A stretch of DNA of 64,000 nt from an uncultured Opitutaceae bacterium (GCA_903862935.1 CAIOZY010000017.1:5649-69648), one strand, 5' to 3'. Counted from the stretch's first letter, positions 41,101 to 58,012 are shown. Made by a program: numbers and translations. The notes: generated by a model not told the origin, from the letters alone.

Positions 41101-41232
41101 GTCGTCGGTTCGAACAACCTGTTCAACCACACGCCTCCGTTCATCACCGGTTCCCCCGAGGATAACACCGACAAGGGCACCTATGACGTGATCGGGCGCA
41201 CCTACTTCTTCTCCCTGAAGAAGACCTTCTAA
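38191..41232 (+). CDS. TonB-dependent outer-membrane receptor
   Basis: Signal peptide. Plug domain (LVLLDGRRV...IDRIDVLKDGSSTIYGTDAVGGVVNIITK), a long beta-barrel region and a terminal aromatic residue (...YFFSLKKTF). Confidence 0.8.
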   Translation: MNIRSTRIGAVFAAVLAVIAVSSAPAQTTSTDTTAAPGAGSPVKMAAFEVTGSYLPTASAVNASPVTAYNTATINMTLPANVLDFFRSQSPDFFGSGNRSNEANNGGNTGGEAYLAIRNLSTLVLLDGRRVVNSAFSAGTGVDLASIPVSMIDRIDVLKDGSSTIYGTDAVGGVVNIITKKDYNGSEIRIEHGMSKDNIYKYDDVAIMTGFSNQNTYFTMVAEYYRNNTLATNQRFIGSMGPTDLTRLGSAVAPSYMSGTFYGRIGSYMLAGDPLAVGAPGYNAAIKSPTPKTNPYAAGYASVAAYAAANPGQYILINTSPASIALGGTATILNTTSYGTGTIDPTQRKQFMANFGHNIFGDKLVLFGSFLLNENKNAGVILAPGPSYPGGVDVNNMIIPATNPWNFFGQDITSFGGFTGGPVRNRFAEVGMRTLTVQSDTYRLITGLKGQINDDWSWEMGLDYSHSIYQQLQNNAINGYAFNQLVTPRIVNGAYVYNANGLPQSIVANGSGGYLSAYDYLAVPGYNDPATINALRADLFQNGNSELKEVDFVIRGTPFTVPAGKIGMAFGGEYLGQSVFNAVDTLYASGYLLGGLNPIGQFSGGATTDKAVFTEVAIPLTAPSQNLPGLYESDLNLSGRYTKLNTGANAKIPKIGIRWQPINADLTIRGTFSKGFIAPSVYSLYGPTAGNSPTVVLPDPSSSTGYNGVQITSRELSNPKLPPSNSQNFTFGFVYSPHQVRGLDISLEYYNIKQDHVGSIDYQSIFNSLNSLGSASPYASSYTNPDGTHLTTTAKNQINANNSGSIVVQSNPAGDQKTSGFDAAVSYSFELPNALGRMKVGADANYLQHFLFRATPEDKYDDYASNYTGAYAPVAAFYTLPRYNVKANLQYDIKGFAALATINYIPSVTNWGDAFGSQGNTVNGKPYNDVYVTGGAQMIPSYYTVNLTLSYTFRKGEPGSTLSYLNGLSIVVGSNNLFNHTPPFITGSPEDNTDKGTYDVIGRTYFFSLKKTF

Positions 41233-41261
41233 GGCGCGTCTAGATCCTGGTTCCGCTCTCG

Positions 41262-41297
41262 GGGCGGCGGCAGTAATCCTGCCGCCGCCCTTTTTTT
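41262..41297 (+). terminator. rho-independent terminator of the TonB-dependent receptor gene
   Basis: GGGCGGCGGCAG (41262-41273) / loop TAATC / CTGCCGCCGCCC (41279-41290), followed by TTTTTTT. Confidence 0.75.
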
Positions 41298-41336
41298 GTC
41301 GCCGCTTCCCAAGCTTCGGCCAAGGTTTTTCAAGCG

Positions 41337-42656
41337 ATGCGCGCCCTGATTGCCTCAGTCCTCGTTTCCATCGCCGCGACAGCCGGCGCCGCGGACCTTC
41401 ACCGGGAGGTCGCTGAGCGCCTCGGTTCCGAACTGCCCTCGCTCGGTACGTTCTATCGGGACATCCACCAGCATCCGGAGCTTTCGCTGATGGAGGCACG
41501 GACCGCAACCGCAGCGGCGCGGGAATTCCGCTCGGCCGGTTTTGAGGTCACCGAAGGGGTGGGCGGGACGGGCGTCGTCGGCGTCCTTCGCAACGGGCCG
41601 GGCCCGGTTATCCTGATCCGGTCGGAATTGGACGCCCTGCCGATCCGGGAGGAGACCGGCCTTCCCTTCGCCTCCACCGTTGTTGTCAAGGACCTCGCGG
41701 GCCGTGACAGCCCCGTCGACCACGCCTGCGGCCACGACGTCCACCTGACGGCGCTTGTCGGCGCGGCGCGAATCCTCTCCGGGCTCCGCGCACGCTGGTC
41801 GGGGACCTTGGTCCTTGTGGGTCAGCCGGCCGAGGAGACCGCGGCGGGCGCCTACGCGATGCTCCGGGACGGGCTCTACACGCGGTTTCCCAGGCCGAAT
41901 TTCGCGATCGCCCTGCACATCCACGGCGACAGTCCGGCCGGAACGGTTTCGGTCCTTGAGGGAGGAGCCTGCGCGAACTCGGACTCGGTCGACATCCTGG
42001 TGCGCGGGGTGGGGGGGCACGGCGCGCGGCCGGACATGGCCAAGGACCCGGTTGTTCTGGCGAGCCAGATTGTCGTCGCCTTGCAGACGATCGTCAGCCG
42101 GGAGACCAAGCCGGGGGTTGCCGCCGTAGTCACCGTTGGAACATTTCACGGAGGCACCAAACGCAACGTGATCCCCGAGCAGGTTAAACTCGAGCTCACG
42201 GTCCGCTCGTACGACTCGGCCGTTGCGGCGCATCTCCTCGATTCGATCCGCAGGATCAGCGAGAACCTGGGAAGGGCGGCAGGGATGCCCGAAAACCTCC
42301 TTCCGGTCGTCACGGTCACGCCCGAGCACACCCCGGTCACCTACAACGACCCCGCACTCGCCAGGCGCCTGAGGGGGGTTCTCGCCGACTGGCTGGGGAC
42401 GGACCGGATCATCCCGGGGGACCCCACGACGGCTGGTGAAGACTTTGCGTGGTTCGGACGCACGACACCCCCGGTTCCGTGCTGCATGTGGTTTGTCGGT
42501 GCGGCCGACCCGGCCAAATGCGCGGAAAGCGCCCGAACGGGCGTCCCGTTGCCGTCGAACCATTCGCCCTACTTCGCGCCCGACTTTGATCCCACGATCC
42601 GGGCCTGCGTGACCAGCCTGTGCGCCGGGGCCCTAGATCTGCTGTCGTCCCGTTAA
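41337..42656 (+). CDS. M20-family amidohydrolase (secreted)
   Basis: Signal peptide MRALIASVLVSIAATAGA. HQHPELSLME, ILIRSELDALP, CGHDVH, GQPAEE: the M20D/hippurate-hydrolase-like motif set. Confidence 0.85.
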   Translation: MRALIASVLVSIAATAGAADLHREVAERLGSELPSLGTFYRDIHQHPELSLMEARTATAAAREFRSAGFEVTEGVGGTGVVGVLRNGPGPVILIRSELDALPIREETGLPFASTVVVKDLAGRDSPVDHACGHDVHLTALVGAARILSGLRARWSGTLVLVGQPAEETAAGAYAMLRDGLYTRFPRPNFAIALHIHGDSPAGTVSVLEGGACANSDSVDILVRGVGGHGARPDMAKDPVVLASQIVVALQTIVSRETKPGVAAVVTVGTFHGGTKRNVIPEQVKLELTVRSYDSAVAAHLLDSIRRISENLGRAAGMPENLLPVVTVTPEHTPVTYNDPALARRLRGVLADWLGTDRIIPGDPTTAGEDFAWFGRTTPPVPCCMWFVGAADPAKCAESARTGVPLPSNHSPYFAPDFDPTIRACVTSLCAGALDLLSSR

Positions 42657-42734: not shown

Positions 42735-43226
42735 ATGCCCCATTCCATAACCCTTGCTGACTCTCCGGTTCTCCCCGACCGGCCCGCGGAGCGTGCCCGC
42801 AGGGACCGCCGGCCCGACGAGCGGGCCTTCACACTGCTGGAAATCCTCGTTGTGCTGGCGATCATCGGCCTGCTGGTCGGCGTGGCCATGTCCAATCTGA
42901 CCGGCATCTTTGGCGGCGCCCAGGCCAAGATAGCCAAGCTGTTCGTCGCCACAGAGATGGAGGTTCCGCTGACGAGCTACAGGATCGACGTTGGCGATTA
43001 TCCCACCACGGACGACGGCGGACTGGCGGCCCTGTGGACCGCTCCCGCGAGCAAGGCTGATCGCTGGCACGGGCCCTATGCCAAGGGCTCCAAGCCGCCC
43101 CTTGACCCCTGGGGCCGCGACTACAAGTACGCCTATCCCGGCGTCCATAACAAGGGCGGATACGACTTGTGGTCGACGGGCCCGAGCGGGGTCGACGGCG
43201 GGCCGGACAACATCGGCAACTGGTGA
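42735..43226 (+). CDS. gspG: type II secretion major pseudopilin
   Basis: FTLLEILVVLAIIGLLVGVA prepilin N-terminus and a GspG-type C-terminal core (YRIDVGDYPTT..GLAAL...WHGPY....DPWGRDYKY..PG.HN.GGYDLWS.GPDG). It has an unusually long 31-aa leader with Ala at position -1. Confidence 0.85.
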   Translation: MPHSITLADSPVLPDRPAERARRDRRPDERAFTLLEILVVLAIIGLLVGVAMSNLTGIFGGAQAKIAKLFVATEMEVPLTSYRIDVGDYPTTDDGGLAALWTAPASKADRWHGPYAKGSKPPLDPWGRDYKYAYPGVHNKGGYDLWSTGPSGVDGGPDNIGNW

Positions 43227-43738
43227 TGAGAAGGGGGGGATTCACCCTGCTTGAGGTGCTTCTCACGGTCGCCCTGATTGGGCTCCTGGCGACGACCCTG
43301 ATCGGTATCTCTGCCCACCTGCTGAGCGACCGGCCGACCTCCCCCGATGACATATTCTGGCAGGCCGCGCAGGAGGCCCGCCGGTCCGCCCTCAAGAGCA
43401 AACACGAGGTGCGGCTGTCCTTCGATGCGAAGGCCAAGACTTTTGAGGTGAACGGCGGAACAACGTCGCGGGCCTTTGCTGTTCCGTCCGCCCCGGACGA
43501 CCTCGCTGTAGACTTCATCGCCGACCAGTCCGGAGGGTCCTCCTCCCTGATCGGCGGCACGCTGGTCGAAACCCAGACCATGACCGACGTGCCGTTCTAT
43601 CCCGACGGAACCTGCGTCCCTTTCCGGGTCCAGTTTCGCGCCAAGGGAGGGGTTCACCGGGTTTCGATAGACCCCTGGACCGGGGCCCGGGTGCTGGCCC
43701 CGCTTGACTCCACGGGAGCCCCCGTCACCTCGCCGTGA
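43226..43738 (+). CDS. gspH: minor pseudopilin (GspH-like by position)
   Basis: MRRGG/FTLLEVLLTVALIGLLA prepilin signal. About 170 aa. ATG overlaps the gspG stop (TGATG). Confidence 0.55.
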   Translation: MRRGGFTLLEVLLTVALIGLLATTLIGISAHLLSDRPTSPDDIFWQAAQEARRSALKSKHEVRLSFDAKAKTFEVNGGTTSRAFAVPSAPDDLAVDFIADQSGGSSSLIGGTLVETQTMTDVPFYPDGTCVPFRVQFRAKGGVHRVSIDPWTGARVLAPLDSTGAPVTSP

Positions 43739-44196
43739 AAAGGAAGCGTCAGGCTGGATTCACGCTCCTCGAGGTCCTTGTGGCGCTTGTCGTCTTCGCG
43801 CTCGCCGCGGTAGTCCTGGGAGGGGCCTACCTCAACATCCTCAACGGCTACGCGGTCATCAGCCGGGGTGTTGGCGAGGATCCGGACGTGTTCTTTGCGC
43901 GGCAGGAGCTGCTGACCCAGGCAGACGTCAAGCTCGCAAAAACTGGCGACGAATACGACACGCAGGACGGCCGGCACGTGAAGTGGACGGCCGAGGTCGA
44001 GCCGACGACGACCGCCGATCTTTTCTCGGTCACCTTCACCTGTGCCCTCGCCGCATCGGGGCCGACAGACCGTCCCCGGACCCTTACGGAGTCGTTCATG
44101 CTCCTGCGGCCGAGTTGGTCGGAGCCCACTGTCCGCGACGATCTGCGGCAGAAGGCCGCAAGCCGGATCGCAAAATTCCAGGGCAAACAGCCATGA
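43735..44196 (+). CDS. gspI: minor pseudopilin (GspI-like)
   Basis: MKRKRQAG/FTLLEVLVALVVFALAAVVL prepilin signal. 153 aa. GTG overlaps the previous stop (GTGA). Confidence 0.55.
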   Translation: MKRKRQAGFTLLEVLVALVVFALAAVVLGGAYLNILNGYAVISRGVGEDPDVFFARQELLTQADVKLAKTGDEYDTQDGRHVKWTAEVEPTTTADLFSVTFTCALAASGPTDRPRTLTESFMLLRPSWSEPTVRDDLRQKAASRIAKFQGKQP

Positions 44197-44840
44197 GGCG
44201 CTCCAAAGAGGGATTCACGCTCCTTGAGGTGCTGCTGTCGCTCGCGCTCGCAGCGCTGCTGCTGGTTGCGCTGAACACGTTCATCTTTTCGATGGGCGAA
44301 CTGTGGGGAAAAAACTCCGAGCGAAGGCTCTTCGACCAGCACGTGAACGCGGTAGGCCGTTTTCTCACCGAGGAACTGAGGGAGGCGACGCTCCCACCTT
44401 CGGCCCGAGCGTCGGCAACCCCAGTCTCCGTTCAAGAGATCACCCCGGCCAACGGCGCGATCGAGCGCCTGATCACTTTCGAGCTGCCCTCCGGCTGCCG
44501 GCTCCTGGCTTGGCCGGACCGGCCACTTCCCGAGGTCGTCTGCTCCCTGCAGCTGCGGGAGCATGCGGGACTCTTCCTGCTCTGGCACTCCCGCCTGGAG
44601 ACCCGTTTCGACACAGATCCGCCGCGGGAGACGCTGCTTACGCCGTGGGCGAGCGCGCTCGCCTACGACTACTACGACACATCTCTCAAGCGCTGGACCA
44701 AAGAGATGGCGCTTCGCAACGGGACCAACAACCAACCCCAGGTACCCCAGCGCCTGCGGTTGACCTTCTCCTACGGGAAAATGGCGCGGGAGATCGTGAT
44801 TCCGCTGCCCTTGGCTCAACAGGGCCTGCCCAACTTCTGA
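44193..44840 (+). CDS. gspJ: minor pseudopilin (GspJ-like)
   Basis: MRRSKEG/FTLLEVLLSLALAALLLVAL prepilin signal. 215 aa. ATG overlaps the previous stop (ATGA). Confidence 0.5.
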   Translation: MRRSKEGFTLLEVLLSLALAALLLVALNTFIFSMGELWGKNSERRLFDQHVNAVGRFLTEELREATLPPSARASATPVSVQEITPANGAIERLITFELPSGCRLLAWPDRPLPEVVCSLQLREHAGLFLLWHSRLETRFDTDPPRETLLTPWASALAYDYYDTSLKRWTKEMALRNGTNNQPQVPQRLRLTFSYGKMAREIVIPLPLAQQGLPNF

Positions 44841-44842
44841 GG

Positions 44843-46006
44843 ATGAAACGGGGCTCCATTCTCGTGATCGTCCTAGTGACGCTGCTCTTTGCCGCGACAG
44901 CGCTGGTTGCCTTCCTCGACAAGGCCGGCACGGACCTGTTGGTCGTCTCGCGCGCAGCGACGGCCGACCGCCTCAGGGCCGACGGGTATTCGGCTCTGGA
45001 GGTGACCCTGGCTGTGCTGGAGGACTTCCGGAGGGTGGGGGGCGGCTTGCACAGCGCGGCCGAGGGCTGGGGCGACCCGCTCGGATGGGCGAGCTGGGAA
45101 CCGGCAGACGGGACTCAGGTCGAAGTGTCCTTCCAAGACGAGAGTGCAAAGATCCCGCTGATCCACGTCGACCCGGCGATCCTCTCGAATCTTTTCCAAT
45201 ACTGGCAGATGCCCCAGAGTGACGCCCAGCACCTCTCCGACGTCCTGCTTGCATGGATGCAGCAAAACTATCTGCCCTCCAGCGGGATACCCCCCGACTA
45301 TGCCCAGAGCACTCCGGCCTTCGATCCCCCGATGAGGCCGATGAGGTCCTACAGCGAGCTGGCGGCGATCGACTACGCAAGGGAGGTCTTCTTCGACAAG
45401 GCCGGCCATCCAAACGAACTGTGGTGGCGCTTTGTGAATGACTTCTCGCTGTTCAACTACCCAAAGCCCGACATCAATGGGGCGAACGCTGACGTGCTTG
45501 CGGGCCTGGGCCAGTTTGGCGACAACGAGCGCCAGCACATCACCGACTACCTGAGCGGCAAAGGAACCTCCCGGGCCGCCTCCCCGCTCGGGCAGCAGTG
45601 GTTTTCGAGCACGGGCGACGTAGCCGGGGTCGTGGGTACCCAGGGAAACGCCCAGGCGTTCTCCTCAACAATCGCTGCGCTGCGGATCGTGATCACCGTC
45701 CGGGACGGCTCTTCGCGCTACACCGTCTCGGCTGTGGTCGCCCCCCAAGGGGGAGCCACAACCGTCCAGACGACCGCCACCGACGTAAAGAAGGGCGCCG
45801 CGGGCGGCTCGTCGGGCCAGACAGGCTCCTCCAACGGGCTCAACCAGACCCCGACCCAGACGTCCTCCACGGCCACGAACGCCCAGACTGCCGCCGCCTC
45901 CACGGCGACGGCAAACCTCCAGTACCCGTTTACGGTCTTGGAAATTAGGGAGAACGATGAGATCCTCTCCCCTCCCGATTCCCCGCCAAGCCCTCCCAAA
46001 ACCTGA
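44843..46006 (+). CDS. gspK: GspK-like minor pseudopilin with Ser/Thr-rich tail
   Basis: Hydrophobic N-terminus without Glu+5 (MKRGSILVIVLVTLLFAATALVAF), the motif DESAKIPLIHVD, and an HhH-like DINGANADVLAGLGQFGDNERQHITDYL resembling the GspK INxNTA...L..L.G...A..I motif. Confidence 0.65.
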   Translation: MKRGSILVIVLVTLLFAATALVAFLDKAGTDLLVVSRAATADRLRADGYSALEVTLAVLEDFRRVGGGLHSAAEGWGDPLGWASWEPADGTQVEVSFQDESAKIPLIHVDPAILSNLFQYWQMPQSDAQHLSDVLLAWMQQNYLPSSGIPPDYAQSTPAFDPPMRPMRSYSELAAIDYAREVFFDKAGHPNELWWRFVNDFSLFNYPKPDINGANADVLAGLGQFGDNERQHITDYLSGKGTSRAASPLGQQWFSSTGDVAGVVGTQGNAQAFSSTIAALRIVITVRDGSSRYTVSAVVAPQGGATTVQTTATDVKKGAAGGSSGQTGSSNGLNQTPTQTSSTATNAQTAAASTATANLQYPFTVLEIRENDEILSPPDSPPSPPKT

Positions 46007-46026
46007 TCTGAAGCCCGCATGGCAGC

Positions 46027-47187
46027 ATGAGCGCCCTGTCGCTTAAGTTTCTCAAGGCCGGCCCGCCACCCCCTCGGGTGGTGCTGCTTCCCGATGCCCT
46101 GTTCTTCGTGAGGGCGGTTCCGGTGAGCGTGGATCCGGCGGCCGATGCGCTAAGGCAGTCCGCCGAGGCGGCTTCCCAGGTTGAACTCGCCCTCGAGGCC
46201 CTTGCTCCCTTTCCCGTGGCCCAGCTCTACCACGGGCACCACTGGGTTCCCGGCTCCGACAGGGCTCTTGCCTTCGCGGCCTACCGCCGGCGGTTCACAC
46301 CGGAGCAGTCTGCGGAATGGGCGGACGCCGAGCTCATGCTGCCGGCCTTCGCCTGCATCCTCGGAGCGGAGGTCACTCCGGCCACTACGGTCGTCCTGGC
46401 CTCCCCGGAGGGGTTCACGGCGGTCCACTGGGGCGTCCCGGGGCCCGTACCGACCCAGGTCTGGTTCCAGTCCGTACCGGCCGATGCCCCCGAGGAGGAC
46501 CGGGCGGCGGCGCGGACCGCGCTGCTTCGGCGCGCCGAGAGCAAGACCGTCTTGGACCTGCCCGCCCTGCCGGAGGCCCAGCCGAGGCGCAGCGACCGGG
46601 AGTTTTCCTTCCGGTCGGGCGAGCTCAAGTCCCGCATTTCCTCGGTGACCGCCGCGGCCCTCGACGTCCGCGACAAGGCGGACCTGGCGGCGCTGCGCCG
46701 CGCGAGGGCGCGCGACGTTCTTTTTTGGCGGATCCTGGTCGGGTGCGCCGCCGCCGTCTGCCTGCTGGCAGCTGGGGAAGTTGCCCTCTTTGGCGGAGGA
46801 ATCTGGCAGAAGGCCCGCCGGGTTCAGCTGAGTGCGCGGGCCCCGCTGGTTGAGAAGATCATGACCCACCAGGAGATCGCCAACCACATCGAGGACCTCT
46901 CGACCCGGCGTCTCCTGCCGATCCAGATGATCGAGATAGCCGCTTCGAAGAAGCCTGCCGCGACCGTGTTCATCCGGGCGAGCACGACCGGGCTGTACAC
47001 GCTCAACGTCGAGGCCCAGACCCCGAACGTCGGCGAGATCGGGATGTACAAGAACGACCTCGAGGCGCTCCCCTCCTGCGCCGGGGTCGTCATCAAGAAT
47101 CCGCAGACCCGGGACAACCTCGCGACCTTCACGCTGGTCGTGACCTTCAAGCCGGACGCCCTCAAGGCTCCGCCCCCGCCGCCATGA
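46027..47187 (+). CDS. bitopic inner-membrane protein, GspL / PilM-PilN analogue (hypothetical)
   Basis: About 225-aa cytoplasmic part, one TM (VLFWRILVGCAAAVCLLAAGEVALF) and an about 130-aa periplasmic part. It sits between the gspK-like and gspM-like genes. I recognise no signature motif, so the call rests on topology and context. Confidence 0.4.
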   Translation: MSALSLKFLKAGPPPPRVVLLPDALFFVRAVPVSVDPAADALRQSAEAASQVELALEALAPFPVAQLYHGHHWVPGSDRALAFAAYRRRFTPEQSAEWADAELMLPAFACILGAEVTPATTVVLASPEGFTAVHWGVPGPVPTQVWFQSVPADAPEEDRAAARTALLRRAESKTVLDLPALPEAQPRRSDREFSFRSGELKSRISSVTAAALDVRDKADLAALRRARARDVLFWRILVGCAAAVCLLAAGEVALFGGGIWQKARRVQLSARAPLVEKIMTHQEIANHIEDLSTRRLLPIQMIEIAASKKPAATVFIRASTTGLYTLNVEAQTPNVGEIGMYKNDLEALPSCAGVVIKNPQTRDNLATFTLVVTFKPDALKAPPPPP

Positions 47188-47738
47188 TCGCCACCATCCG
47201 AGCGTTCTTTCTGAGCAGGCTTCTTCGCGAGAAGGTGCTGATCCTCGCCCTGGTCGTGATCGTGGTGGCGCTATGGCTGTCCAGCGCCGCCGGCCGGGCG
47301 GGCCGCTTTGTTGCCGAGACGCAGAGCACCTCGGTGACGCTCGCTCAGCAGTCCAAGTGGCTTGCCAATAAGGACGCTGTGGAGAAGGCGGCCCAGAAGG
47401 CAGCCAACCGCTTCGACCCCACGCAGACCCTCGACGGGACGAGACTCCTGGCGGCCGTTTCTGCGATCGCCCGAGACGCGGGTCTTCGCAACTACAGCAC
47501 GGGCAGCTCCGAGGATCTGAGCACGGGGCAGTTCGCAGTCCACACCCTCCAGTTCACGGTGGTGAGGGCTCCTTGGTCAGTCCTGAAGGGGTTCTGCGTG
47601 GCGCTCCAGCAGCGCTCGCCCTACATCGGGATCGAGCAGTTCTCGGTCGCGGCGGCCGACCGGGGAAACTCCAGTGTGGACGCGCTCAACGTCTCGATGA
47701 AGGTTTCGTCGGTCGAGGTCGTGCGGCGAGAACCCTAG
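47184..47738 (+). CDS. GspM / PilO-like bitopic protein (hypothetical)
   Basis: N-terminal TM (VLILALVVIVVALWLSSAA) plus an about 140-aa periplasmic domain. The ATG overlaps the previous stop (ATGA). Last gene of the pseudopilin operon. Confidence 0.4.
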   Translation: MIATIRAFFLSRLLREKVLILALVVIVVALWLSSAAGRAGRFVAETQSTSVTLAQQSKWLANKDAVEKAAQKAANRFDPTQTLDGTRLLAAVSAIARDAGLRNYSTGSSEDLSTGQFAVHTLQFTVVRAPWSVLKGFCVALQQRSPYIGIEQFSVAAADRGNSSVDALNVSMKVSSVEVVRREP

Positions 47739-47784: not shown

Positions 47785-48942
47785 ATGATGCAGACACAGA
47801 CGAGCCGACGCTCCTGCGCCGTTCTGGCCGCCTGGGTGCTTGTGCTTGCGCAGCCGCGCGAAGCCAAGGCCGAGAACGATCTTAGCTACCACTACGAGGA
47901 GTACCGCGAGGCCGGCCGCATCACCGTTCGTTCCCAAGGAGCGCAGGCCGAGCAGGATCTGGGCACGGACATGCGCGTGAAGATCGGGGGCGTGATCGAC
48001 TCGATAGCGGGTGCCACGCCAACGGGCGAGCCGGCGCCGGCCGGGAGCGACCAGGTGATTCTCAGCCATCTGAGCGACCTGAGGCGCGCCTGGAACGCCG
48101 AGGTCTCAAAGCAGCTTCCGAGGGTCAACGTGGCGCTCGGTTTCTCCCGGAGCGTCGAACACGACTACGCCTCGAACGGTTGGTCGATAAACACGCTGAC
48201 GGATTTTAACCAGAAAAACACGACGGTCCTCCTGGGGGTTGCGGGCACCGACGACAACGTCGAGGTTTTCTTCAAGCCGGCATGGCTGCGCAAGGTGTCC
48301 AACGATGTGATCGCCGGGGTGACCCAGCTTATCGATCCCCGCACCTCCGTGACGGCGGACCTGACTTGGGGCCGGGAGACGGGCTTCTTGAACGATCAGT
48401 ACAAGCTGGTCGAAAAGGACATCCAGATTCTGCCCGGAATTTTTCTTCCGGAAACCTTTGCGGAAAACCGGCCGAACGAGCGAACCAAGGTGGTTGCGTT
48501 TCTCTCCGTCAACCGGGCGTTTCCCGGGGCCAAGGGGGCGCTTGAGGCAAGCTATCGCTTCTATCACGACACTTACGGAATCTCCGCCCATACCCTGGAT
48601 CTGGCCTGGTTCCAGCAGCTCTCGGACAGGGTCGTCCTGCGCCTGAGCGTGCGGCCCTACCAGCAGGACGCCGCCGGCTTCTATCACTACCGCCTGAACG
48701 ACACCCCCCTGATTCCAACCCGCTTTCCCAATCCCCAGGGCCCCTTTTATTCCTCGGATGGCCGCCTCTCTGCGCTGCGCAGTCTCGATTGCGGCCTCAA
48801 GGCGGTATGGACCGCCGCGGCCTGGCTGCAGCTGGGCGCCGAGGTGAGCCGCTACACCCAGCGGGGAACCGACGGGGTGATCCCCCAGAGCGCCTACTAT
48901 CGCGCCACCGTGACCTCGGCCAGCGCGAGGCTCTCCTGGTAG
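47785..48942 (+). CDS. DUF3570-like predicted outer-membrane beta-barrel protein
   Basis: Signal peptide (CAVLAAWVLVLAQPREAKA), alternating beta-strand-like sequence and a terminal aromatic residue (...SARLSW). N-terminal LSYHYEEYRE...GGVIDSIAGATPTG region. Family assignment is from recall of DUF3570 proteins, which I recall sitting next to ApbE/DUF4266. Confidence 0.65.
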   Translation: MMQTQTSRRSCAVLAAWVLVLAQPREAKAENDLSYHYEEYREAGRITVRSQGAQAEQDLGTDMRVKIGGVIDSIAGATPTGEPAPAGSDQVILSHLSDLRRAWNAEVSKQLPRVNVALGFSRSVEHDYASNGWSINTLTDFNQKNTTVLLGVAGTDDNVEVFFKPAWLRKVSNDVIAGVTQLIDPRTSVTADLTWGRETGFLNDQYKLVEKDIQILPGIFLPETFAENRPNERTKVVAFLSVNRAFPGAKGALEASYRFYHDTYGISAHTLDLAWFQQLSDRVVLRLSVRPYQQDAAGFYHYRLNDTPLIPTRFPNPQGPFYSSDGRLSALRSLDCGLKAVWTAAAWLQLGAEVSRYTQRGTDGVIPQSAYYRATVTSASARLSW

Positions 48943-48954
48943 CCCGACTGCCCC

Positions 48955-49950
48955 ATGGCCTTCATCGCGCAGTCGCATAAAGCCCCCGAACCCCCGGATC
49001 CGTCCGGCCCGGTGGGCCCGCCGCTTAGGAAGAGGGTATTCCCCGCTCTTGGAACGAGTTGCGAGCTTCAGTACTCGGCGCCCGGAGGTGACCGCCAGGC
49101 CCAGGATTTTGAGCGCCGTGCAGTCGCCTGGGTCGAGTCTTTCGAGGCGCGGTACTCCCGCTTCCGCCCGGAGAGCCTCCTGAGCCGAGTCAACGCTGCC
49201 GCGGGACGGGCCTGGGTCGAAGTCGACCCGGAGATGGAGCAGATGTTCAAACTCTGCGACACCCTGCATTTCATGACGCAGGGTGTCCTGGACCCGACGG
49301 CGCTGCCGCTCATCCGGCTGTGGAACTGGAAGGCGGAGGCTCCGGTGATCCCGCCTGACGGGGCGGTGGCTGTCGCCCGGCGTCTGGTCGGCTGGCCGAA
49401 GGTGCAGCGCTCCCCCGGAAAGATCTTTCTCCCCGAGTCGGGCATGGCCCTGGACTTTGGGGGATTCGGCAAAGAGTACGCCGTCGACATGGTCTCCCAG
49501 ATTGCGGCTGACGGAGGGATTTCGGATGTTCTCGTGGACTTCGGGCACGACCTCCGGCTCCGTGGGGCGCCGCCCGGCAGGCCCGCCTGGCACATTGGGC
49601 TCGAAGATCCACACCGGCCCGGGCAGCCGTGGGCAAGCGTGGCCCTTTCCGGAAGCCGCGGGATTGCATCCTCGGGGGACTACATCCGCAGGTTCGTCAT
49701 CGAGGGGCGTCGTTACGGGCACATTGTCGATCCGCGCACGGGCCGCCCCGTTGCCAACGGATGCATTCAGGCGACCGTGATCGCCTCGACCTGTCTCCAG
49801 GCGGGGGCGCTTTCGACGACGGCCTTCGTTCTGGGAATTCCCCAGGGAATTGACTTTATCCAGGCCTGTCCTGGGGCCGAGGGTTTGATTATTGCCGAAA
49901 CATCCCGGGCCCAAACCCGCGGCTTCTTCCACCATGTCGTTTCTTCATAG
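48955..49950 (+). CDS. apbE: FAD:protein FMN transferase
   Basis: ALGTSCELQY, SRFRPESLLSRVN, GVLDPTALPLIRLW, ALDFGGFGKEYAVD, IASSGDY...GHIVDPRTGRP. The ORF shows no signal peptide or lipobox. Confidence 0.85.
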   Translation: MAFIAQSHKAPEPPDPSGPVGPPLRKRVFPALGTSCELQYSAPGGDRQAQDFERRAVAWVESFEARYSRFRPESLLSRVNAAAGRAWVEVDPEMEQMFKLCDTLHFMTQGVLDPTALPLIRLWNWKAEAPVIPPDGAVAVARRLVGWPKVQRSPGKIFLPESGMALDFGGFGKEYAVDMVSQIAADGGISDVLVDFGHDLRLRGAPPGRPAWHIGLEDPHRPGQPWASVALSGSRGIASSGDYIRRFVIEGRRYGHIVDPRTGRPVANGCIQATVIASTCLQAGALSTTAFVLGIPQGIDFIQACPGAEGLIIAETSRAQTRGFFHHVVSS

Positions 49951-50440
49951 CCTCTGCCGTATCCTGGGCGTCCTCCTCGCCTTCGCCGCAGTACCCGCGC
50001 TCCGGTCTGAGGTGAAGGTGGGCGACCGCTTCCCGTCACTCGAGGGCGCCGGATTGGCCGGGAGCCTGCCGCAGACTCGGGGCCAGGTGGTTCTGGTTGA
50101 TTTCTGGGCCTCCTGGTGCGAGCCATGCCGGGCCTCGTTTCCCGCCTACGCCCGGATCCATGCAGACTTCGCGGCCCGCGGATTGGTCATTGTCGCGGTG
50201 AGCGTGGACGAGAAGCCAGCTGCCTATTCGGCCTTTCTCAAGAGAAATGAGCCTCCGTTCTCCACGGTCCGCGATCAGGACCGCAAGCTCGTGCAGGAGG
50301 TTCGGGTGCCCGCCATGCCAACGAGCTACCTCATCGATCGGGAGGGTCGGGTACGCTTCATCCACCCCGGCTTCCATGGTTGGGAAACGGAAGCCCGGCT
50401 TCGCTCGGAGATCGAGACCCTCCTGTCCGGGAGACCATGA
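49934..50440 (+). CDS. TlpA-like periplasmic thiol:disulfide oxidoreductase
   Basis: Signal peptide MSFLHSLCRILGVLLAFAAVPALRS and the thioredoxin motif FWASWCEPC. It overlaps the apbE 3' end by 17 nt. Confidence 0.8.
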   Translation: MSFLHSLCRILGVLLAFAAVPALRSEVKVGDRFPSLEGAGLAGSLPQTRGQVVLVDFWASWCEPCRASFPAYARIHADFAARGLVIVAVSVDEKPAAYSAFLKRNEPPFSTVRDQDRKLVQEVRVPAMPTSYLIDREGRVRFIHPGFHGWETEARLRSEIETLLSGRP

Positions 50441-50444
50441 CCCC

Positions 50445-50693
50445 ATGAGACTCAACCCCGATCGCCGCCTAGCCCTCCTCGTCATTCTAGGGCTCGCCGC
50501 GGCCGCCTGCGGCGGCTGCGCCGGTTTCAACCCCGTCCGCGTCCAGCCCTGGGAGAGAGGCACCCTCGCCGACTATACGATGAGGCCGGACCGCGACCCC
50601 CTGGGCACGATGTTCGCCGAGCACGTGTACTTCTCGCGGGAGGCCGCGGCAGGGGGCCGGGGCGTTGGCGGCAGCGGCTGCGGCTGTAACTAA
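50445..50693 (+). CDS. DUF4266-like small lipoprotein
   Basis: Lipobox LGLAAAAC, then VQPWERGTLADYTMRPDRDPL...EHVYFSREAAAGG and a Cys-rich end GGSGCGCN. 82 aa. Family assignment from recall. Confidence 0.65.
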   Translation: MRLNPDRRLALLVILGLAAAACGGCAGFNPVRVQPWERGTLADYTMRPDRDPLGTMFAEHVYFSREAAAGGRGVGGSGCGCN

Positions 50694-50793: not shown

Positions 50794-52722
50794 ATGCCCT
50801 CCGCTGCCTCCCTCTGTCGCCGGCTCCGCTGGGTGAATCTGCCGACTACCGTTCTGATCGCGCTCCTGCAGCGCCTGCCCATTGAGCGCGTTGCGGAGTT
50901 TGCGGGTCGCATCGCTGCTGTCTCTCCCGCCGGTGCCATCCTTAAGTCCGCCTTTAGCGTGGTGTCCCTGGGGGCCGTCCACTCGCTTGCCGGGGCAACC
51001 CGCACCGTGGCGAGCCCGGTGAGCCCGCTGAGCGCGACGGCCGGCCAGGCGATCAGTCCCGTGGTCTTCTCGACCACAGGCACCCAATCGGCTCCCAGTT
51101 CGTGGGAGGTGACATCCGGAACCATTCCGCCCGGGCTGGATCTGAGCGGCCTGACGGGAATAGGAGTCAGGAACACCATCACGTCCTACGCCCTGCTTGA
51201 GGGCACCCCGACGACACCCGGGACCTACACCTTCGCTGTTGTTGCCTGGGAGTATCCGAACGGCTCAAACGCGAAAAACAACCTGGCTTCGCCATCGCTG
51301 TCCTACACCGTCAACGTCGCTGCAGCGGCTGGAACCGCCCCCTCGATCACGACGCAATCCTCGTCACAGTCTGCGGCCGCAGGCTCCACCGTCACCCTCC
51401 AGGTCGTGGCCTCAGGCACCGCGCCCCTGAGCTACCAATGGCGGCTCAACGGCTCAAACGTGTCGGGTCCCAACTTCACCGGCGGAAACACCGCTACGCT
51501 GCAGATCTCAAACTTTGGGGCCGCTGTAGCGGGAACCTACACGGTGGTGGTGAGCAACTCCTCCGGTACCGCGGCCTCAAACCCCATCAGCCTGACTGTA
51601 AGCAATTCGGGAACCCTGCCGTTATTCACGGCCCAGCCTTCGTCGTACACGGTTGAGACGGGCTCAACTGCCGTCTTTAGCGTGGTGGTGAGCGGGACGC
51701 CGTCCCCGACCCTCCAGTGGAGCCGGGGAGGCTCACCGATTTCGGGGGCGACCTCAGCCCGCCTCGTCATCTCGAACACCTCAGTGGCCGACAACGGCAC
51801 CTACACTTGCACGGCGACCAACTCTGCGGGAACGGCAACAAGCAGCGCCGCAATCCTCTCCATAGAGACCGCTGCAGACCCGGGGCGTCTGGTTAACCTG
51901 TCGGTCAACGCTAAGGTGAACCTCTCGATCGGTATTCCGAACCTGATCATGGGGTTTGTGACTGGGGGATCGGGAACGACGGGCTCCCAGGCCCTGATGA
52001 TCCGGGCCGGGGGCCCGGCTCTCATCCCGTACGGGGTGAGTGGGGTCTTGGCGGACCCGGAGCTGACGGTCTTCAACGGCTCGGCCTCGATTGCCTCGAA
52101 TGCGGGCTGGGGAACGCCCTCAAGCAACATTGCCTTGGTAAACGCGGCCCAGGCAAACACGGGCGCGGGGTTGGTCTACACAAACACCGCGAGCCTGGAC
52201 TCTGCGGTCGTGCTATCGCTTGCGGCCAGCCCCGGGTACACGGTGCAGGTCGACGGCAAGAACGGGGACTCGGGCCAGACCCTGGCCGAGGTCTATGACA
52301 ACACCCTGGCCAACACCTACACCCTGGCCACACCGCGGCTCGTGAACCTGTCTTGCCGGATCACGGTACCGGCGAACGGGAGCCTGACGGACGGCTTCTA
52401 CGTCGGGGGTTCGACGGCGAAGACGGTCCTGATCCGAGCGATAGGCCCCGGCCTTTCCGCTTATGGGATCACGGGCGCCATGTCGGACCCTGTCTTGACG
52501 GTAAACGCTGGCAGCACGGTGATAGCAACCAACTCCGGCTGGGGCGGCGATCCGCAGCTTGCGGCGGCGATGAATTCGGTCAGCGCGCAACCTAACCCGC
52601 CCCAGGTCCACGATGCGGTGGTCCTCCTGACTCTGCAGCCCGGCCAGTCCTACACCGCGGTCGCCACCAGCGCGAGCAACACTGCCGGCAACGTCCTGGT
52701 CGACATTTACGAGGTGCCCTGA
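50794..52722 (+). CDS. large Ig-like repeat protein (two I-set-like Ig domains plus a duplicated C-terminal domain)
   Basis: Ig-like modules (PSITTQSSSQSAAAGSTVTLQVVASGTAPLSYQWRLNGS...GTYTVVVSNSSG; LFTAQPSSYTVETGSTAVFSVVVSGTPSPTLQWSRGG...NGTYTCTATNSAG). These are followed by two about 130-aa repeats, each starting RLVNLS. The start codon is uncertain. Confidence 0.7.
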   Translation: MPSAASLCRRLRWVNLPTTVLIALLQRLPIERVAEFAGRIAAVSPAGAILKSAFSVVSLGAVHSLAGATRTVASPVSPLSATAGQAISPVVFSTTGTQSAPSSWEVTSGTIPPGLDLSGLTGIGVRNTITSYALLEGTPTTPGTYTFAVVAWEYPNGSNAKNNLASPSLSYTVNVAAAAGTAPSITTQSSSQSAAAGSTVTLQVVASGTAPLSYQWRLNGSNVSGPNFTGGNTATLQISNFGAAVAGTYTVVVSNSSGTAASNPISLTVSNSGTLPLFTAQPSSYTVETGSTAVFSVVVSGTPSPTLQWSRGGSPISGATSARLVISNTSVADNGTYTCTATNSAGTATSSAAILSIETAADPGRLVNLSVNAKVNLSIGIPNLIMGFVTGGSGTTGSQALMIRAGGPALIPYGVSGVLADPELTVFNGSASIASNAGWGTPSSNIALVNAAQANTGAGLVYTNTASLDSAVVLSLAASPGYTVQVDGKNGDSGQTLAEVYDNTLANTYTLATPRLVNLSCRITVPANGSLTDGFYVGGSTAKTVLIRAIGPGLSAYGITGAMSDPVLTVNAGSTVIATNSGWGGDPQLAAAMNSVSAQPNPPQVHDAVVLLTLQPGQSYTAVATSASNTAGNVLVDIYEVP

Positions 52723-52732
52723 CGGGCGTGTG

Positions 52733-53989
52733 TCACATCTTGAAGCTGGCGCTGACTTTGAATACGGCGCTCACGATCGCAAACGCGATGAACCCGACGA
52801 AGATGAAGACAGCCATCAGAACTGCGCTCGCGATCACCCGGGTGAAGGCGTTGAGCCGGTTCGAGATGACACGCTGGTAGTCCCGGGAAATGTCCCGCAG
52901 GCTGCGCACGACGTTGCCTGTGTTCTCGCCGACCGCAAGACGGTCCAAGACGAGATCGGGAAAACACCCTGTCCGCCCGATCGCCGTCGAAAGGGCCTCG
53001 CCTTCCAGGACGCGTGCCGTCGCCTCGTTAAAGGCCTTCTGATGGACCCGGTTTGAGATCTGGCGCTCGGTCATCCTCAACGCCTCGGAGGCGTTAATGC
53101 CGTTCTCGAGCAGGACGTGAAGGGTCTGACTGAATGCGAGCACGGTCTGGGCGACAATGAACGGGCCCACGAGCGGCAGGCGAAGGAGCCAGGCGTCGCT
53201 TGCCTCCCGGCCGGGGCCGGTAGCGCGCCAGCGCCAGAAGGAGATCGCGGCCAACGCCGCTGCCAGGACGATGAAGATCCCGTAATGCAGGGCAAACGAT
53301 GACAGGGAGATCAAAATCTGGGTAGAAAGAGGCATCGTGCCCCCGAGCGAATTGAGCAGGACTTGCAGCCGGGGCAGCAGAAAGAACAGGAAGAAGAGGA
53401 TCACCCCGCCCGCGACCACAACCATGAACGCGGGGTAGGCGAGCGCGGTCGTCAGCTGTTGGCGCAGCTCCCTCTGCTCAGTGAGGTGAGCGATCAGGCG
53501 GGCGACGGTCTCGCTCAGGGATCCCGTGGCCTCGCCGGCCTGGATCAGGTTGATGGTGGCCGGGTCGAAGACCTCGGGAAAATCCGCCATAGCCCGGGAC
53601 AAGGGGGCTCCCTCACTGAGACGCTCCCACAGGCCGTTGCACAGCGCGCGGAGCCGCGGCTCCTTAATGCGGATTGAAAGCAGCCGCACGGCCTCGCCGG
53701 CGGAAAGCCCACTGGAGGTCAGGTCGTGGAGGGACTCAAGAAAGGGAAGACGCTCACTGCGGCGCGGCGTCGTGTCGCGCTGCCGCCGCCATCGTTTCCG
53801 CGCCGCCCGCTCGGCTGCGGGTTTCGCCGCGGCTGGCCTGGCCGCCGAATCCGGAGCCTCGGCGATGGAGGCCACATGGAGGCCGCGGGAGGCCAGCATT
53901 CTCAGGGCGTCCCTCCGACTGGGGGCCTCGAGGTCTCCCTGGCGGGCGGTCCCCGACGCGTCGCGGGCGGAATAAGAGAAACGGGGCAT
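52733..53989 (-). CDS. gspF: type II secretion inner-membrane platform protein
   Basis: Two T2SSF-type repeats (LPFLESLHDLTSSGLSAGEAV...; ...LENGINASEALRMT...) and three TM segments. 418 aa. Confidence 0.85.
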   Translation of the reverse strand: MPRFSYSARDASGTARQGDLEAPSRRDALRMLASRGLHVASIAEAPDSAARPAAAKPAAERAARKRWRRQRDTTPRRSERLPFLESLHDLTSSGLSAGEAVRLLSIRIKEPRLRALCNGLWERLSEGAPLSRAMADFPEVFDPATINLIQAGEATGSLSETVARLIAHLTEQRELRQQLTTALAYPAFMVVVAGGVILFFLFFLLPRLQVLLNSLGGTMPLSTQILISLSSFALHYGIFIVLAAALAAISFWRWRATGPGREASDAWLLRLPLVGPFIVAQTVLAFSQTLHVLLENGINASEALRMTERQISNRVHQKAFNEATARVLEGEALSTAIGRTGCFPDLVLDRLAVGENTGNVVRSLRDISRDYQRVISNRLNAFTRVIASAVLMAVFIFVGFIAFAIVSAVFKVSASFKM

Positions 53990-53995
53990 GCTCCG

Positions 53996-55711
<1,716 letters not shown>

Positions 55712-55713
55712 GG

Positions 55714-57825
55714 CTAATTCTTGAAGCGGTCGATGAAGTTCTGGACCTTCGAGTCGGGCTTCTGATCGCCCGGATCGGCGAGGAATCTCTTGATTTGATC
55801 GCGGTTCGAGAGCTCCTCGACGCGCTTGCGCACGTCGGCCGATCCATCCGTCGGGGAAAGAATCTCGGGACGTATGAAGAAAAGCAGCTCGGTGCGGTCC
55901 GTCTGGTCGGTGTGCCCCCCGAGAATTTGGCTCAGGATCGGGATCTCGTAGAGAAACCCGATCTTGTTCTGGGTCGTGGTCTTCTTCGCCTGCTGCAGGC
56001 CGCCGAGCACGATCATCTGGCCGTCCTTCACCGTGACGAACGACTTCATTTCGCGGTGGTCGATTACAGGCTGGGTGTCCCCGGCCTGGATCGTGATGTA
56101 GCTGCCGATATCGTCGACCTTTTGGTCAATCGTGAGCTGGATGTCGCCGTTTTCACCGATAAGGGGCGTGACCGTCAGGTCGATCGCAACGTTCTGGTAG
56201 GTGGAACTGAAGGAGTTGACGGGGGACACACCCGTGGTCGCTAGGGTGCTCTGCCCGCCGTTGATGATCGGCACCTGCTGGCCGACCGTGACCTGCGCGG
56301 GCTTGTTGTGCGCAGTCACGATCACGGGGGCCTGGAGGACGTGGATCACGTTCTTTGTGCCAGTGGAGGCCGAATTGAAGGCGGCGTTGAAGGCGAGCGG
56401 GTTGACAACTCCGCTTGTGAAGTCCCAGCCGGAGATGCTGGTTCCGGGGATCGCCGTCGTTGTGGCCGTGCCGGTGGTCGTGCTGCCGGTCGAACTCCCG
56501 GCAAAGTTGGTGACGTGCGTCGCCCCGTTCTGCTGGCCGACGGTTAGTCCCAAGGCGGTGATCCCGCTGATATCGCTGTTGGTGAGGGTGACCTCGGCGA
56601 TGATCACCTGGATCCGGACCTGGGCGAGGGCGATGTCCAGCTTCTCGATCAACTCCCGGATGAGACGGATGTCGTCGACCGTGCCGGAGACGACCACCGA
56701 GTTGCTCCGCTCGTCGGGCTGGATCGTCATGAAACTGCTGAACTCGTTCGTGGCTGCGCCCTCCTTGGTTCCCGCCGCCGTCGCTACTGGCTGGATGTTC
56801 GCGACCTCCCCGGGACGCACGGACGGAGTGGACGACTTCTGGGCTGCCTGGTTCTGGCCGGTGACGACCGCCGAGAGCAGCGTCGTCAGGTCCTTTGCGT
56901 CGGCGTGCTTAAGGTAGATCACCTCGTTTCGGGTATTTGGGTCGGATTTGACGTCGAGCCTGCCTATCAGTTCGTCGAAATACGGCACCTCCCTCGGGTC
57001 GCAGATGACAATCACCTGGTTCGTGCGGTCGTCAGCCTGGTAGGTCGTGGCTGTCCCAATCTGGATCTGGACTGCTCCGCTGCCCAGCAGCGCCTTCATT
57101 TTGGTCACCAGATCGCTGGCCTTGGCGTAGTGCAGCGGGTAAAATTTTGGAGTGCAGCCGCTGAGCATCGGCCGGTCGAGCGAATGAATGAGCAGCTCGA
57201 CGCGCTGGAGGTTGCTGACGGTATCCGTGATCAAGGCTGCGTTCGCCTTTTCCAGGAGAACAACCCCGCCGCCGATTCCCGGGGTAAACAGAGTGGTCAG
57301 CCCCTGGCTAAAGAACTCGTTGGCCCGCAAGAACTCCAGCTGGAAGATCTTTGTAGCGATCCTGCCGCTCGGCTGCATGTCCAGGGTCGAGCCGGCGATA
57401 AAGTCAGGAGCCTCTGCGCGGGTCACGGAAAGGGGCACGACTTTCAGAAAGTGATCCCCCATCGGGACGACTCCGATCTGGTTCAGTGAAAGCAAAGTTT
57501 CCAGGGCTAGGATCAGCTCCGACTTTGGTATATGGTTTAATCGCAGGGTGTAACCGCCTGTGGCCACCGGCAGCGTCCCTGGCCGGATGATCGAGCGGCC
57601 CGTGTAGGCCTCCAGGGCCCCGAGAACTGCGTCGATGTCGCCCTCAGAGATCTTGAAGGACTCGATGATCTCGTCGCCGGGCTTGCCCGCTGTGGCGGTG
57701 GGTTTAGGGGCACCTGCCGGGCGGACAACCTGAGGGGGGGTCTCGGCCGAAACCTGTGCGCGGGCCGTGAGGCCGGCAGCCAGGAGGCCGGCGGAGAGAA
57801 GCAGGCTGGCTTGACGGAGGATCAT
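55714..57825 (-). CDS. gspD: type II secretion secretin
   Basis: Signal peptide MILRQASLLLSAGLLAAGLTARA, N-domains, and a C-terminal secretin domain (MIVLGGLQQ...IGFLYEIPILSQILG...RTELLFFIRPEIL). ATG 57825 is preferred over the track start at 57918. Confidence 0.85.
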   Translation of the reverse strand: MILRQASLLLSAGLLAAGLTARAQVSAETPPQVVRPAGAPKPTATAGKPGDEIIESFKISEGDIDAVLGALEAYTGRSIIRPGTLPVATGGYTLRLNHIPKSELILALETLLSLNQIGVVPMGDHFLKVVPLSVTRAEAPDFIAGSTLDMQPSGRIATKIFQLEFLRANEFFSQGLTTLFTPGIGGGVVLLEKANAALITDTVSNLQRVELLIHSLDRPMLSGCTPKFYPLHYAKASDLVTKMKALLGSGAVQIQIGTATTYQADDRTNQVIVICDPREVPYFDELIGRLDVKSDPNTRNEVIYLKHADAKDLTTLLSAVVTGQNQAAQKSSTPSVRPGEVANIQPVATAAGTKEGAATNEFSSFMTIQPDERSNSVVVSGTVDDIRLIRELIEKLDIALAQVRIQVIIAEVTLTNSDISGITALGLTVGQQNGATHVTNFAGSSTGSTTTGTATTTAIPGTSISGWDFTSGVVNPLAFNAAFNSASTGTKNVIHVLQAPVIVTAHNKPAQVTVGQQVPIINGGQSTLATTGVSPVNSFSSTYQNVAIDLTVTPLIGENGDIQLTIDQKVDDIGSYITIQAGDTQPVIDHREMKSFVTVKDGQMIVLGGLQQAKKTTTQNKIGFLYEIPILSQILGGHTDQTDRTELLFFIRPEILSPTDGSADVRKRVEELSNRDQIKRFLADPGDQKPDSKVQNFIDRFKN

Positions 57826-58012
57826 GCGGTGTTCGGGGGACGTTTTGGGGAGGCCTTGCGGGCGCGCCGGAAGCAAGATCAGAGGATAAATCGGCCGGGT
57901 TGTAAAGGTGATGTGCATGACGAAGAGGGCGGGACGAGGTTGTGGACCATTTTTTCAGCTTTCCCGTTCCCGACAAACCCGCTACGCCATCCCCGGAGTC
58001 CTTCTGCCATTC

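Follow-up and report, generated by a model that had tools for sequence, protein, structure and literature searches.

A probable Opitutaceae-type copy of the DUF3570 flavinylation module, with an ApbE that lacks an export signal and a candidate fifth partner gene

A 64,000-nucleotide stretch of DNA from an uncultured Opitutaceae bacterium (GCA_903862935.1, CAIOZY010000017.1:5649-69648; the window, numbered here from its first letter) carries a compact cluster of four genes that encode a DUF3570 protein, an ApbE-family FAD:protein FMN transferase, a TlpA-like thioredoxin and a DUF4266 protein. Méheust et al. (eLife 2021; PMC8238504) have described a DUF3570 flavinylation module, and we propose, with a probability of about 0.8, that this locus is an Opitutaceae-type version of it, with flavinylation in the cytoplasm and a path from thiols to the flavin. 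In the scheme that we favor, ApbE would transfer FMN from FAD to T78 while the DUF3570 chain is still unfolded, and this step would take place in the cytoplasm, ahead of Sec export. A DsbD/CcdA-type protein, such as the DsbD that adjoins the module in related loci, would next bring reducing equivalents into the periplasm, where the WCxPC motif of the TlpA-like protein would pass them to the CGC at the C-terminus of the DUF4266 lipoprotein. From there they would go to the barrel-bound flavin and finally to an acceptor in the outer membrane or outside it. Because the main idea was published and tested in 2021, the locus itself is only another member of an already published system, of which the window copy is a short, single-site form. 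What may be new is that ApbE is seemingly kept inside the cell and that the module has a conserved fifth partner gene in Verrucomicrobia.

The four genes lie on the plus strand, separated by a 12-nt gap, a 17-nt overlap and a 4-nt gap, and our reading of the open reading frames (ORFs) agrees in both coordinates and spacing with a first-pass annotation of this DNA. The DUF3570 gene (47785..48942) encodes 385 residues, a predicted Sec-exported outer-membrane β-barrel and predicted flavinylation substrate. It is followed by the ApbE gene (48955..49950; 331 residues, with neither signal peptide nor lipobox), by the gene for a TlpA/ResA-like thiol-disulfide oxidoreductase (49934..50440; 168 residues from the ATG, with a signal peptide and predicted to be periplasmic), for which an upstream TTG at 49892 is likewise open, and by the DUF4266 gene (50445..50693; 82 residues), the product of which is a small exported protein and probable lipoprotein. 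The family assignments of the first-pass annotation stand, as all four products score far above the Pfam gathering scores: DUF3570 matches PF12094 (E=1e-60; 206 bits, cut-off 25), ApbE matches PF02424 (E=2e-68; 231 bits), the TlpA-like protein matches AhpC-TSA, Redoxin and Thioredoxin_8 (E=1e-19 to 1e-17) and DUF4266 matches PF14086 (E=2e-22; 80 bits, cut-off 27). In NCBIfam the TlpA-like protein has ResA/DsbE/TlpA-like matches that fall below the equivalog cut-offs. Three further details given by the annotation, namely the ...ARLSW C-terminus of DUF3570, the WCEPC of the TlpA-like protein and the GGSGCGCN end of DUF4266, can all be read in the sequence. A scan for promoters and terminators gave no signal above chance.

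Méheust et al. came to the flavinylation hypothesis from 'orphan' apbE genes and then tested it: co-expression of the Chlorobium luteolum DUF3570 with its cognate ApbE yielded covalent flavin, which was gone only after mutation of both [S/T]GA[S/T] sites (PMC8238504). The same study reported clusters of ApbE, DUF3570, a thioredoxin-like protein and DUF4266, 227 of them with DsbD and another 316 that have none close by, described a conserved and possibly redox-cycling CXC at the C-terminus of DUF4266, and stated that some ApbE substrates remain unidentified (PMC8238504). The window shares with these clusters the four Pfam families, the tight same-strand arrangement, an [S/T]GA[S/T]-type acceptor site in DUF3570 and the C-terminal CXC in DUF4266, and it falls within the class of 316 clusters that have no adjoining DsbD. 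It differs in that its DUF3570 has just one site (A-G-A-T), being without the low-complexity insertion that bears the second, in that its thioredoxin-like protein matches AhpC-TSA/Redoxin/Thioredoxin_8 rather than PF13899, and in that the cluster lies inside a type II secretion system (T2SS) locus and is followed by a conserved gene for a leader-bearing immunoglobulin (Ig)-repeat protein.

This earlier work also bears on what had been claimed for the locus. The proposal that DUF3570 is the substrate of the adjacent ApbE is supported by family-wide conservation of the acceptor motif and by the flavinylation of the homologue, and the interpretation of the four genes as an envelope flavoprotein module with its own thiol-disulfide oxidoreductase gains support from the same cluster in the published set (PMC8238504). 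Since the flavinylation and the cluster were both published in 2021, the accompanying statement that no function was known is outdated, although it still applies to the physiological role of the module. DUF3570 is not discussed in a 2024 follow-up paper or in a 2025 review of ApbE (PMC12052999). A preprint by Haft describes a few Proteobacteria in which DUF4266, DUF3570 and TlpA genes adjoin a surface-sorted JDVT-CTERM protein.

The grouping of these genes extends well beyond the Opitutaceae. We gathered 64 genome loci (L001-L064) with the window ApbE as query, and within 10 kb these ApbE-selected loci contain DUF3570 in 57 cases, TlpA in 57 and DUF4266 in 57. The four genes co-occur across phyla, and 543 clusters of this composition have been published (PMC8238504). 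In the Proteobacteria and Zixibacteria the order of the module genes differs from that in the window.

The candidate acceptor site, D72-S-I-A-G-A-T78, is encoded at 47998..48018 (+), where the first-pass annotation had placed it, and T78 is the predicted site of FMN attachment on the basis of its sequence and of its conservation in the family. We aligned 102 DUF3570 sequences, comprising the window protein, 96 full-length representatives of 50%-identity clusters from an exhaustive HMMER search and 5 proteobacterial or Zixibacteria homologues. The glycine of the motif is present in 102/102, the alanine in 93/102, T or S at the acceptor position in 102/102 and the following proline in 101/102; the first position is D in 76 and N in 22 (D/N, 98/102), and position 4 is S in 76, T in 16 and A in 9. 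Among 66 close homologues D72, G76, A77, T78, P79 and G81 are invariant. As judged from conservation of this extent, the acceptor motif is not a chance match. A long low-complexity insertion directly follows the first site in 44/102 sequences, and 34 of these 44 carry a second site-like motif within it. The insertion is missing from the window DUF3570 and its close relatives, and the window protein has no second [S/T]GA[S/T] site; it therefore represents the short, single-site form.

The motif lies downstream of a predicted signal peptide that, from our reading of the sequence, spans residues 1-29 (47785..47871, +) and ends in ...PREAKA↓E; this ending is kept in DUF3570 homologues as PRxARA↓E. 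Export by the Tat pathway was considered and set aside: the 'SRR' of the window signal peptide is not conserved among homologues, and a Tat signal is thus unlikely. An AlphaFold2 model built from a 67-sequence alignment (pLDDT 86, pTM 0.80) is all-β with about 18 long strands, and the top 50 Foldseek matches in the PDB are outer-membrane barrels only, including PelB, BcsC, PgaA and FepA. The best TM-scores, to the PelB, BcsC and PgaA porins, are about 0.5. Together with the signal peptide and the C-terminal W385, which is conserved in at least 90% of sequences, the model and its matches favor the outer-membrane barrel character first suggested by the aromatic C-terminus, and we predict that DUF3570 leaves by the Sec pathway and forms a barrel of about 18 strands in the outer membrane. 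If the N-terminus is periplasmic and the strands number 18, all short connections (2-4 residues) fall on the periplasmic side and the three long connections (13, 36 and 11 residues) on the extracellular side. In this topology T78 would end strand 3 at the extracellular rim, just before an extracellular loop, and the insertion found in other members of the family would be located in extracellular loop 2. If this placement of T78 is right, the flavin would have to be attached before the barrel is assembled.

The ApbE of the module bears directly on where such an attachment could occur. That it has neither signal peptide nor lipobox and cannot be extended upstream had been flagged as an oddity, and both statements are borne out: an in-frame TAG 12 nt upstream is the stop codon of DUF3570, and the lack of a signal is common to every DUF3570-linked ApbE examined, across phyla. 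In the module-linked ApbE ORFs of the 64 genome loci no N-terminal hydrophobic segment was found, and the median maximum hydrophobicity upstream of the ApbE domain is 0.87, compared with 2.4-2.65 for DUF3570, TlpA and DUF4266. The ApbEs of L059-L063, from Proteobacteria and Zixibacteria, are signal-less as well, and so is that of L186, a cluster of the long, two-site form. The signal-less state is therefore a property of the subfamily and not an artefact of annotation. An upstream alternative start that would supply a signal peptide can be rejected, as no module-linked ApbE has a hydrophobic segment encoded in the frame that is open upstream of its start; the apparent exceptions in L001, L019 and L026 are patches of 5-6 residues. 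Read-through from, or fusion with, DUF3570 was also considered, given that in the window the two genes share a frame with a single TAG between them, yet a comparison of 54 loci shows a random choice of frame (frame 0 in 18, frame 1 in 14 and frame 2 in 22) and a variety of stop codons. The absence of a conserved frame relation excludes this explanation.

In alignment with the V. cholerae ApbE (PDB 6nxi), the window ApbE retains the catalytic His (RYGHIVDP) and the SGDY motif (SSGDY), and a matching catalytic His motif is present in 57/64 ApbE homologues. The Asp of the V. cholerae sequence 'C..TADGLAT' is Gly in the window ApbE, a pattern seen in 58/64 ApbE ORFs of L001-L064 (C-x-x-A-G-x-L-[S/A]-T). 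The classical periplasmic lipoprotein ApbE of V. cholerae, with its substrates NqrC, NqrB, RnfG and RnfD, has the ApbE fold and the catalytic His in common with the window protein, and the D-x-x-[S/T]-G-A-[S/T] logic of its acceptor site is also that of the window module. The window ApbE differs in having no lipoprotein signal, and its substrate is a predicted outer-membrane barrel rather than an FMN_bind domain or an inner-membrane subunit. In lacking a signal peptide it is similar to the cytosolic ApbE of Klebsiella pneumoniae, which acts on a soluble fumarate reductase (PMC12052999), but the substrate in that case is cytoplasmic whereas the window substrate has a Sec signal peptide and is bound for the outer membrane. 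Cytosolic ApbEs are known only with cytosolic targets (PMC12052999).

Given that no DUF3570-linked ApbE examined carries an export signal, the simplest and most likely reading of these sequences is that the unfolded DUF3570 precursor would be flavinylated in the cytoplasm before Sec export. A linear seven-residue motif is sufficient for ApbE (PMC12052999), and the C. luteolum DUF3570 assay was itself carried out in the E. coli cytoplasm, with the product recovered from the insoluble pellet (PMC8238504). The searchable text of that paper discusses neither the missing signal peptide of ApbE nor the barrel fold of DUF3570. Alternatively, ApbE could be exported by an unrecognized route and act in the periplasm, where classical ApbEs must be located in order to function (PMC12052999); the first 20 residues of the protein (MAxIAQSxRxPxP), which are conserved in close relatives, may have some function. 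We consider this unlikely. Approximately 63 DUF3570-linked ApbEs from several phyla have no hydrophobic segment, lipobox or twin-arginine motif, the lone unrelated, non-module ApbE in our set (L064) does show a clear N-terminal transmembrane (TM) segment, and the random frame relation leaves no room for export as a fusion with DUF3570.

The other two proteins of the module are the candidate thiol partners of the flavoprotein. The WCEPC active-site motif of the TlpA-like protein is encoded at 50114..50128 (+), and WCxPC is invariant in 57/57 loci. The C-terminal CGCN tail of DUF4266, which contains the CXC, is encoded at 50679..50690 (+), and GCGCN forms the extreme C-terminus in 57/57 homologues. 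By inspection of the sequences, the lipobox region reads LAAAACGGC in the window and [LF]-x-G-C in 49/57 homologues. A full-length DsbD, the presumptive source of reducing equivalents, is encoded inside the cluster in L046, L051 and L062; this arrangement occurs in Pedosphaera-type loci and in a Sphingomonas locus. The multi-TM ORFs of the window were considered as DsbD/CcdA candidates and proved to be a prepilin peptidase, a DUF2062 protein, an RDD-family protein and a likely MFS-type transporter (not Pfam-checked). A second TlpA/Redoxin-like protein, with a clear lipobox (…LGLGGC), is encoded at 14554-15105 (+), 33 kb from the module. Elsewhere, the distant locus L188 (2816-5752) has the order cytochrome c (Cytochrome_CBB3), DUF4266, DUF3570, with neither ApbE nor TlpA; this arrangement hints that DUF4266 and DUF3570 are the core pair and suggests that their periplasmic donors are interchangeable.

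Several points weigh against the proposal of cytoplasmic flavinylation followed by thiol-to-flavin transfer. For the window DUF3570 itself, flavinylation is predicted from its C. luteolum homologue, and the window protein has A rather than S or T at motif position 4, as in 9/102 sequences, and one site as opposed to the two described for ApbE-associated DUF3570s. The extracellular position of T78 is derived from the modeled topology, and the pLDDT is only 63 around the motif. Passage of an FMN-modified chain through SecYEG is an assumption of the cytoplasmic reading, and the periplasmic requirement of classical ApbE runs counter to it. The path from thiols to the flavin and the role of DUF4266 within it are likewise inferred; no DsbD/CcdA candidate was found in the 64-kb window by a scan of multi-TM ORFs combined with Pfam, and ApbE or TlpA is missing from some DUF3570/DUF4266 clusters (L188, and ten loci discussed below).

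Downstream of the module, at 50794..52722 (+), a fifth gene encodes a 642-residue protein (Pfam Ig_3/I-set). Its first 70 residues form a conserved leader, which is followed by one He_PIG-like Ig domain, a pair of I-set Ig domains and a C-terminal region with no domain assignment. The leader follows the pattern R-x-R-W-L-x-x-P-x-x-x-L-x-x-L-L-Q-R-T-P ... L-[K/R]-S ... L-G-A-x-[H/N/D]-S-x-A-G-A-T, with variants of the form …LLQR[T/L]P…[H/N/D]S[L/M/V]AGAT. It is conserved in at least 26 Verrucomicrobiota genome loci, occurring once per 20-kb locus near the module. No model in Pfam or NCBIfam covers it; a homologue search with the window leader returned only itself, and a profile search only 27 short fragments. 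A degenerate DNA pattern that matches the leader was run against metagenome contigs and recovered 57 true leader loci, and in 43 of the 53 that have enough upstream DNA the module genes are found directly upstream on the same strand. We infer from this distribution that the leader-bearing Ig-repeat protein is probably a conserved fifth partner of the module in Verrucomicrobiota.

At the junction of leader and Ig domain the window protein has the motif H63-S-L-A-G-A-T69 (50980..51000, +), which is a candidate either for an ApbE acceptor or for a signal-peptidase site of the form AxA↓T. The AlphaFold2 model has helix 3 running to residue 66 and the Ig domain beginning at residue 70. One possibility, to which we give about even odds, is that the leader is an extended two-part signal peptide (compare the N1-H1-N2-H2-C organization of the ESPR) that is cut at AGA↓T, and that the mature protein, unflavinylated, is secreted or exposed at the surface and serves the module, or else the T2SS, as a partner or cargo. 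The second hydrophobic segment has textbook geometry for signal peptidase, with K/R, about 12 hydrophobic residues and a six-residue c-region ending in AxA↓T, and the folded Ig domain begins immediately after the site. Moreover, leader genes occur within T2SS loci even in the absence of the module (L130, L129, L143 and L177). However, signal peptidase I obeys the -3/-1 rule, under which neither G at -2 nor T/S at +1 is a selected feature, and both are invariant here. The whole 70-residue leader is also far better conserved than the mature protein, and genes with this leader are closely linked to ApbE and the module.

The second possibility, which we regard as tentative and clearly below even odds, is that the Ig-repeat protein is another ApbE substrate, in some genomes the sole local one, and that it would carry FMN on T69 as a surface-exposed redox partner of the barrel. 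The sequence x-x-x-[A/S/V/T]-G-A-[T/S] is found in 117/118 non-redundant leaders, and its G, A and T/S are the core of the DUF3570 motif; replacement of the position-1 D by A has only a minor effect on flavinylation (PMC12052999). Position 4 tracks in the two proteins, being S in Pedosphaera-type loci and A or T in Opitutae. Three loci, L016 (10001-11676), L020 (5082-7766) and L072, encode gspK-L-M, ApbE and then directly the leader gene, here with D-S-V-A-G-A-T, and DUF3570, TlpA and DUF4266 are absent from them. Furthermore, the first hydrophobic segment of the Pedosphaera type lies at the extreme N-terminus and resembles a complete Sec signal peptide, which would place the motif inside the mature protein. 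Set against this are the signal-peptidase geometry and, in the model, the start of the folded Ig domain exactly at residue 70. Ten leader loci have DUF3570-TlpA-DUF4266 followed by the leader gene with no ApbE between or nearby (L101, L115, L117, L124, L126, L131, L147, L159, L172 and L184), a sub-clade in which ApbE must be encoded elsewhere, and a further ten have no module genes nearby. Leader paralogues also occur in tandem and away from the module.

The tandem paralogues are those of L112, L116, L149 and L159. In L065 (8001-9851) the leader is a separate 90-residue ORF that is directly followed by a 514-residue Ig protein, for which a frameshift or true splitting of the gene may be responsible; genes for an ECF sigma factor and an EF-hand protein are in its vicinity, and there are no module genes within 8 kb.

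As the first-pass annotation had pointed out, the module is embedded between the two halves of a T2SS locus. The upstream half (42735..47738, +) encodes GspG, three or four pseudopilins and GspK-like, GspL-like (by position only) and GspM-like proteins, with Pfam matches to T2SSG, N_methyl, T2SSK_1st (below the cut-off) and T2SSM_b. The other half is convergent (52733..57918, -) and encodes GspF, GspE and the GspD secretin (Pfam T2SSF, T2SSE, Secretin and Secretin_N). Of the 26 closest genome loci, 20 have GspK-L-M genes no further than 10 kb from the module; among the 38 loci that are more distant the count is 0/38, and the embedding is thus a lineage-specific synteny of the closest, Opitutaceae-like clade. 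A functional link, such as export of the Ig protein by the T2SS, is no more than a possibility. A stronger version of this idea would make the module a functional part of the surrounding T2SS, for example in the thiol-redox maturation of T2SS components or cargo. The association with GspK-L-M does survive inversions (L001 and L003) and displacement (L006, L007 and L009), and it is also seen in the metagenome loci L078, L083, L148, L160 and L165. Nevertheless, we think it quite improbable that the module belongs to the T2SS in this sense: most of the 38 distant loci (L027-L064) have the module with no T2SS genes nearby, it stands alone in Proteobacteria and Zixibacteria, and the literature ties it to DsbD and not to the T2SS (PMC8238504).

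Three observations concern the T2SS genes and their surroundings. The gene in the GspL position (46027-47187, +) has no Pfam match at E<0.01 and shares 45-63% identity with its counterparts in related T2SS loci. A prepilin peptidase (A24_N_bact and Peptidase_A24; 10140-11009, -) is encoded about 32 kb from the T2SS genes that it presumably serves. Immediately upstream of gspG lie genes for a TonB-dependent receptor (Plug and barrel) and an M20 peptidase (38191-42656, +).

Porin-cytochrome conduits for extracellular electron transfer offer a functional analogy to the system outlined here. MtrCAB of Shewanella combines an outer-membrane barrel, a periplasmic redox lipoprotein and a surface protein, and its surface component is exported by the T2SS. 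The arrangement that we can imagine for the Verrucomicrobiota has the same three kinds of component, with covalent flavin and thiols in place of hemes; there is no sequence relationship or demonstrated structural relationship between the two. At its widest, such a scheme would have cytoplasmic DUF3570-linked ApbEs flavinylate unfolded pre-proteins, so that the flavin would travel through SecYEG and BAM to the outside of the outer membrane. The same ApbE would modify T69 of the Verrucomicrobiota Ig-repeat protein, which in Opitutaceae would reach the surface by the T2SS, and the chain of DsbD, TlpA, the CGC of DUF4266, barrel FMN and surface flavoprotein would do with thiols and flavin what the porin-cytochrome conduits do with hemes. 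This is a long shot, put forward by analogy.

If flavinylation of a protein bound for the outer membrane by a signal-less ApbE does precede Sec export, this widespread module would represent an unusual route for a covalent cofactor, one that avoids the supply of FAD to the periplasm. The leader-bearing Ig-repeat protein of the Verrucomicrobiota may be a new class of ApbE substrate.

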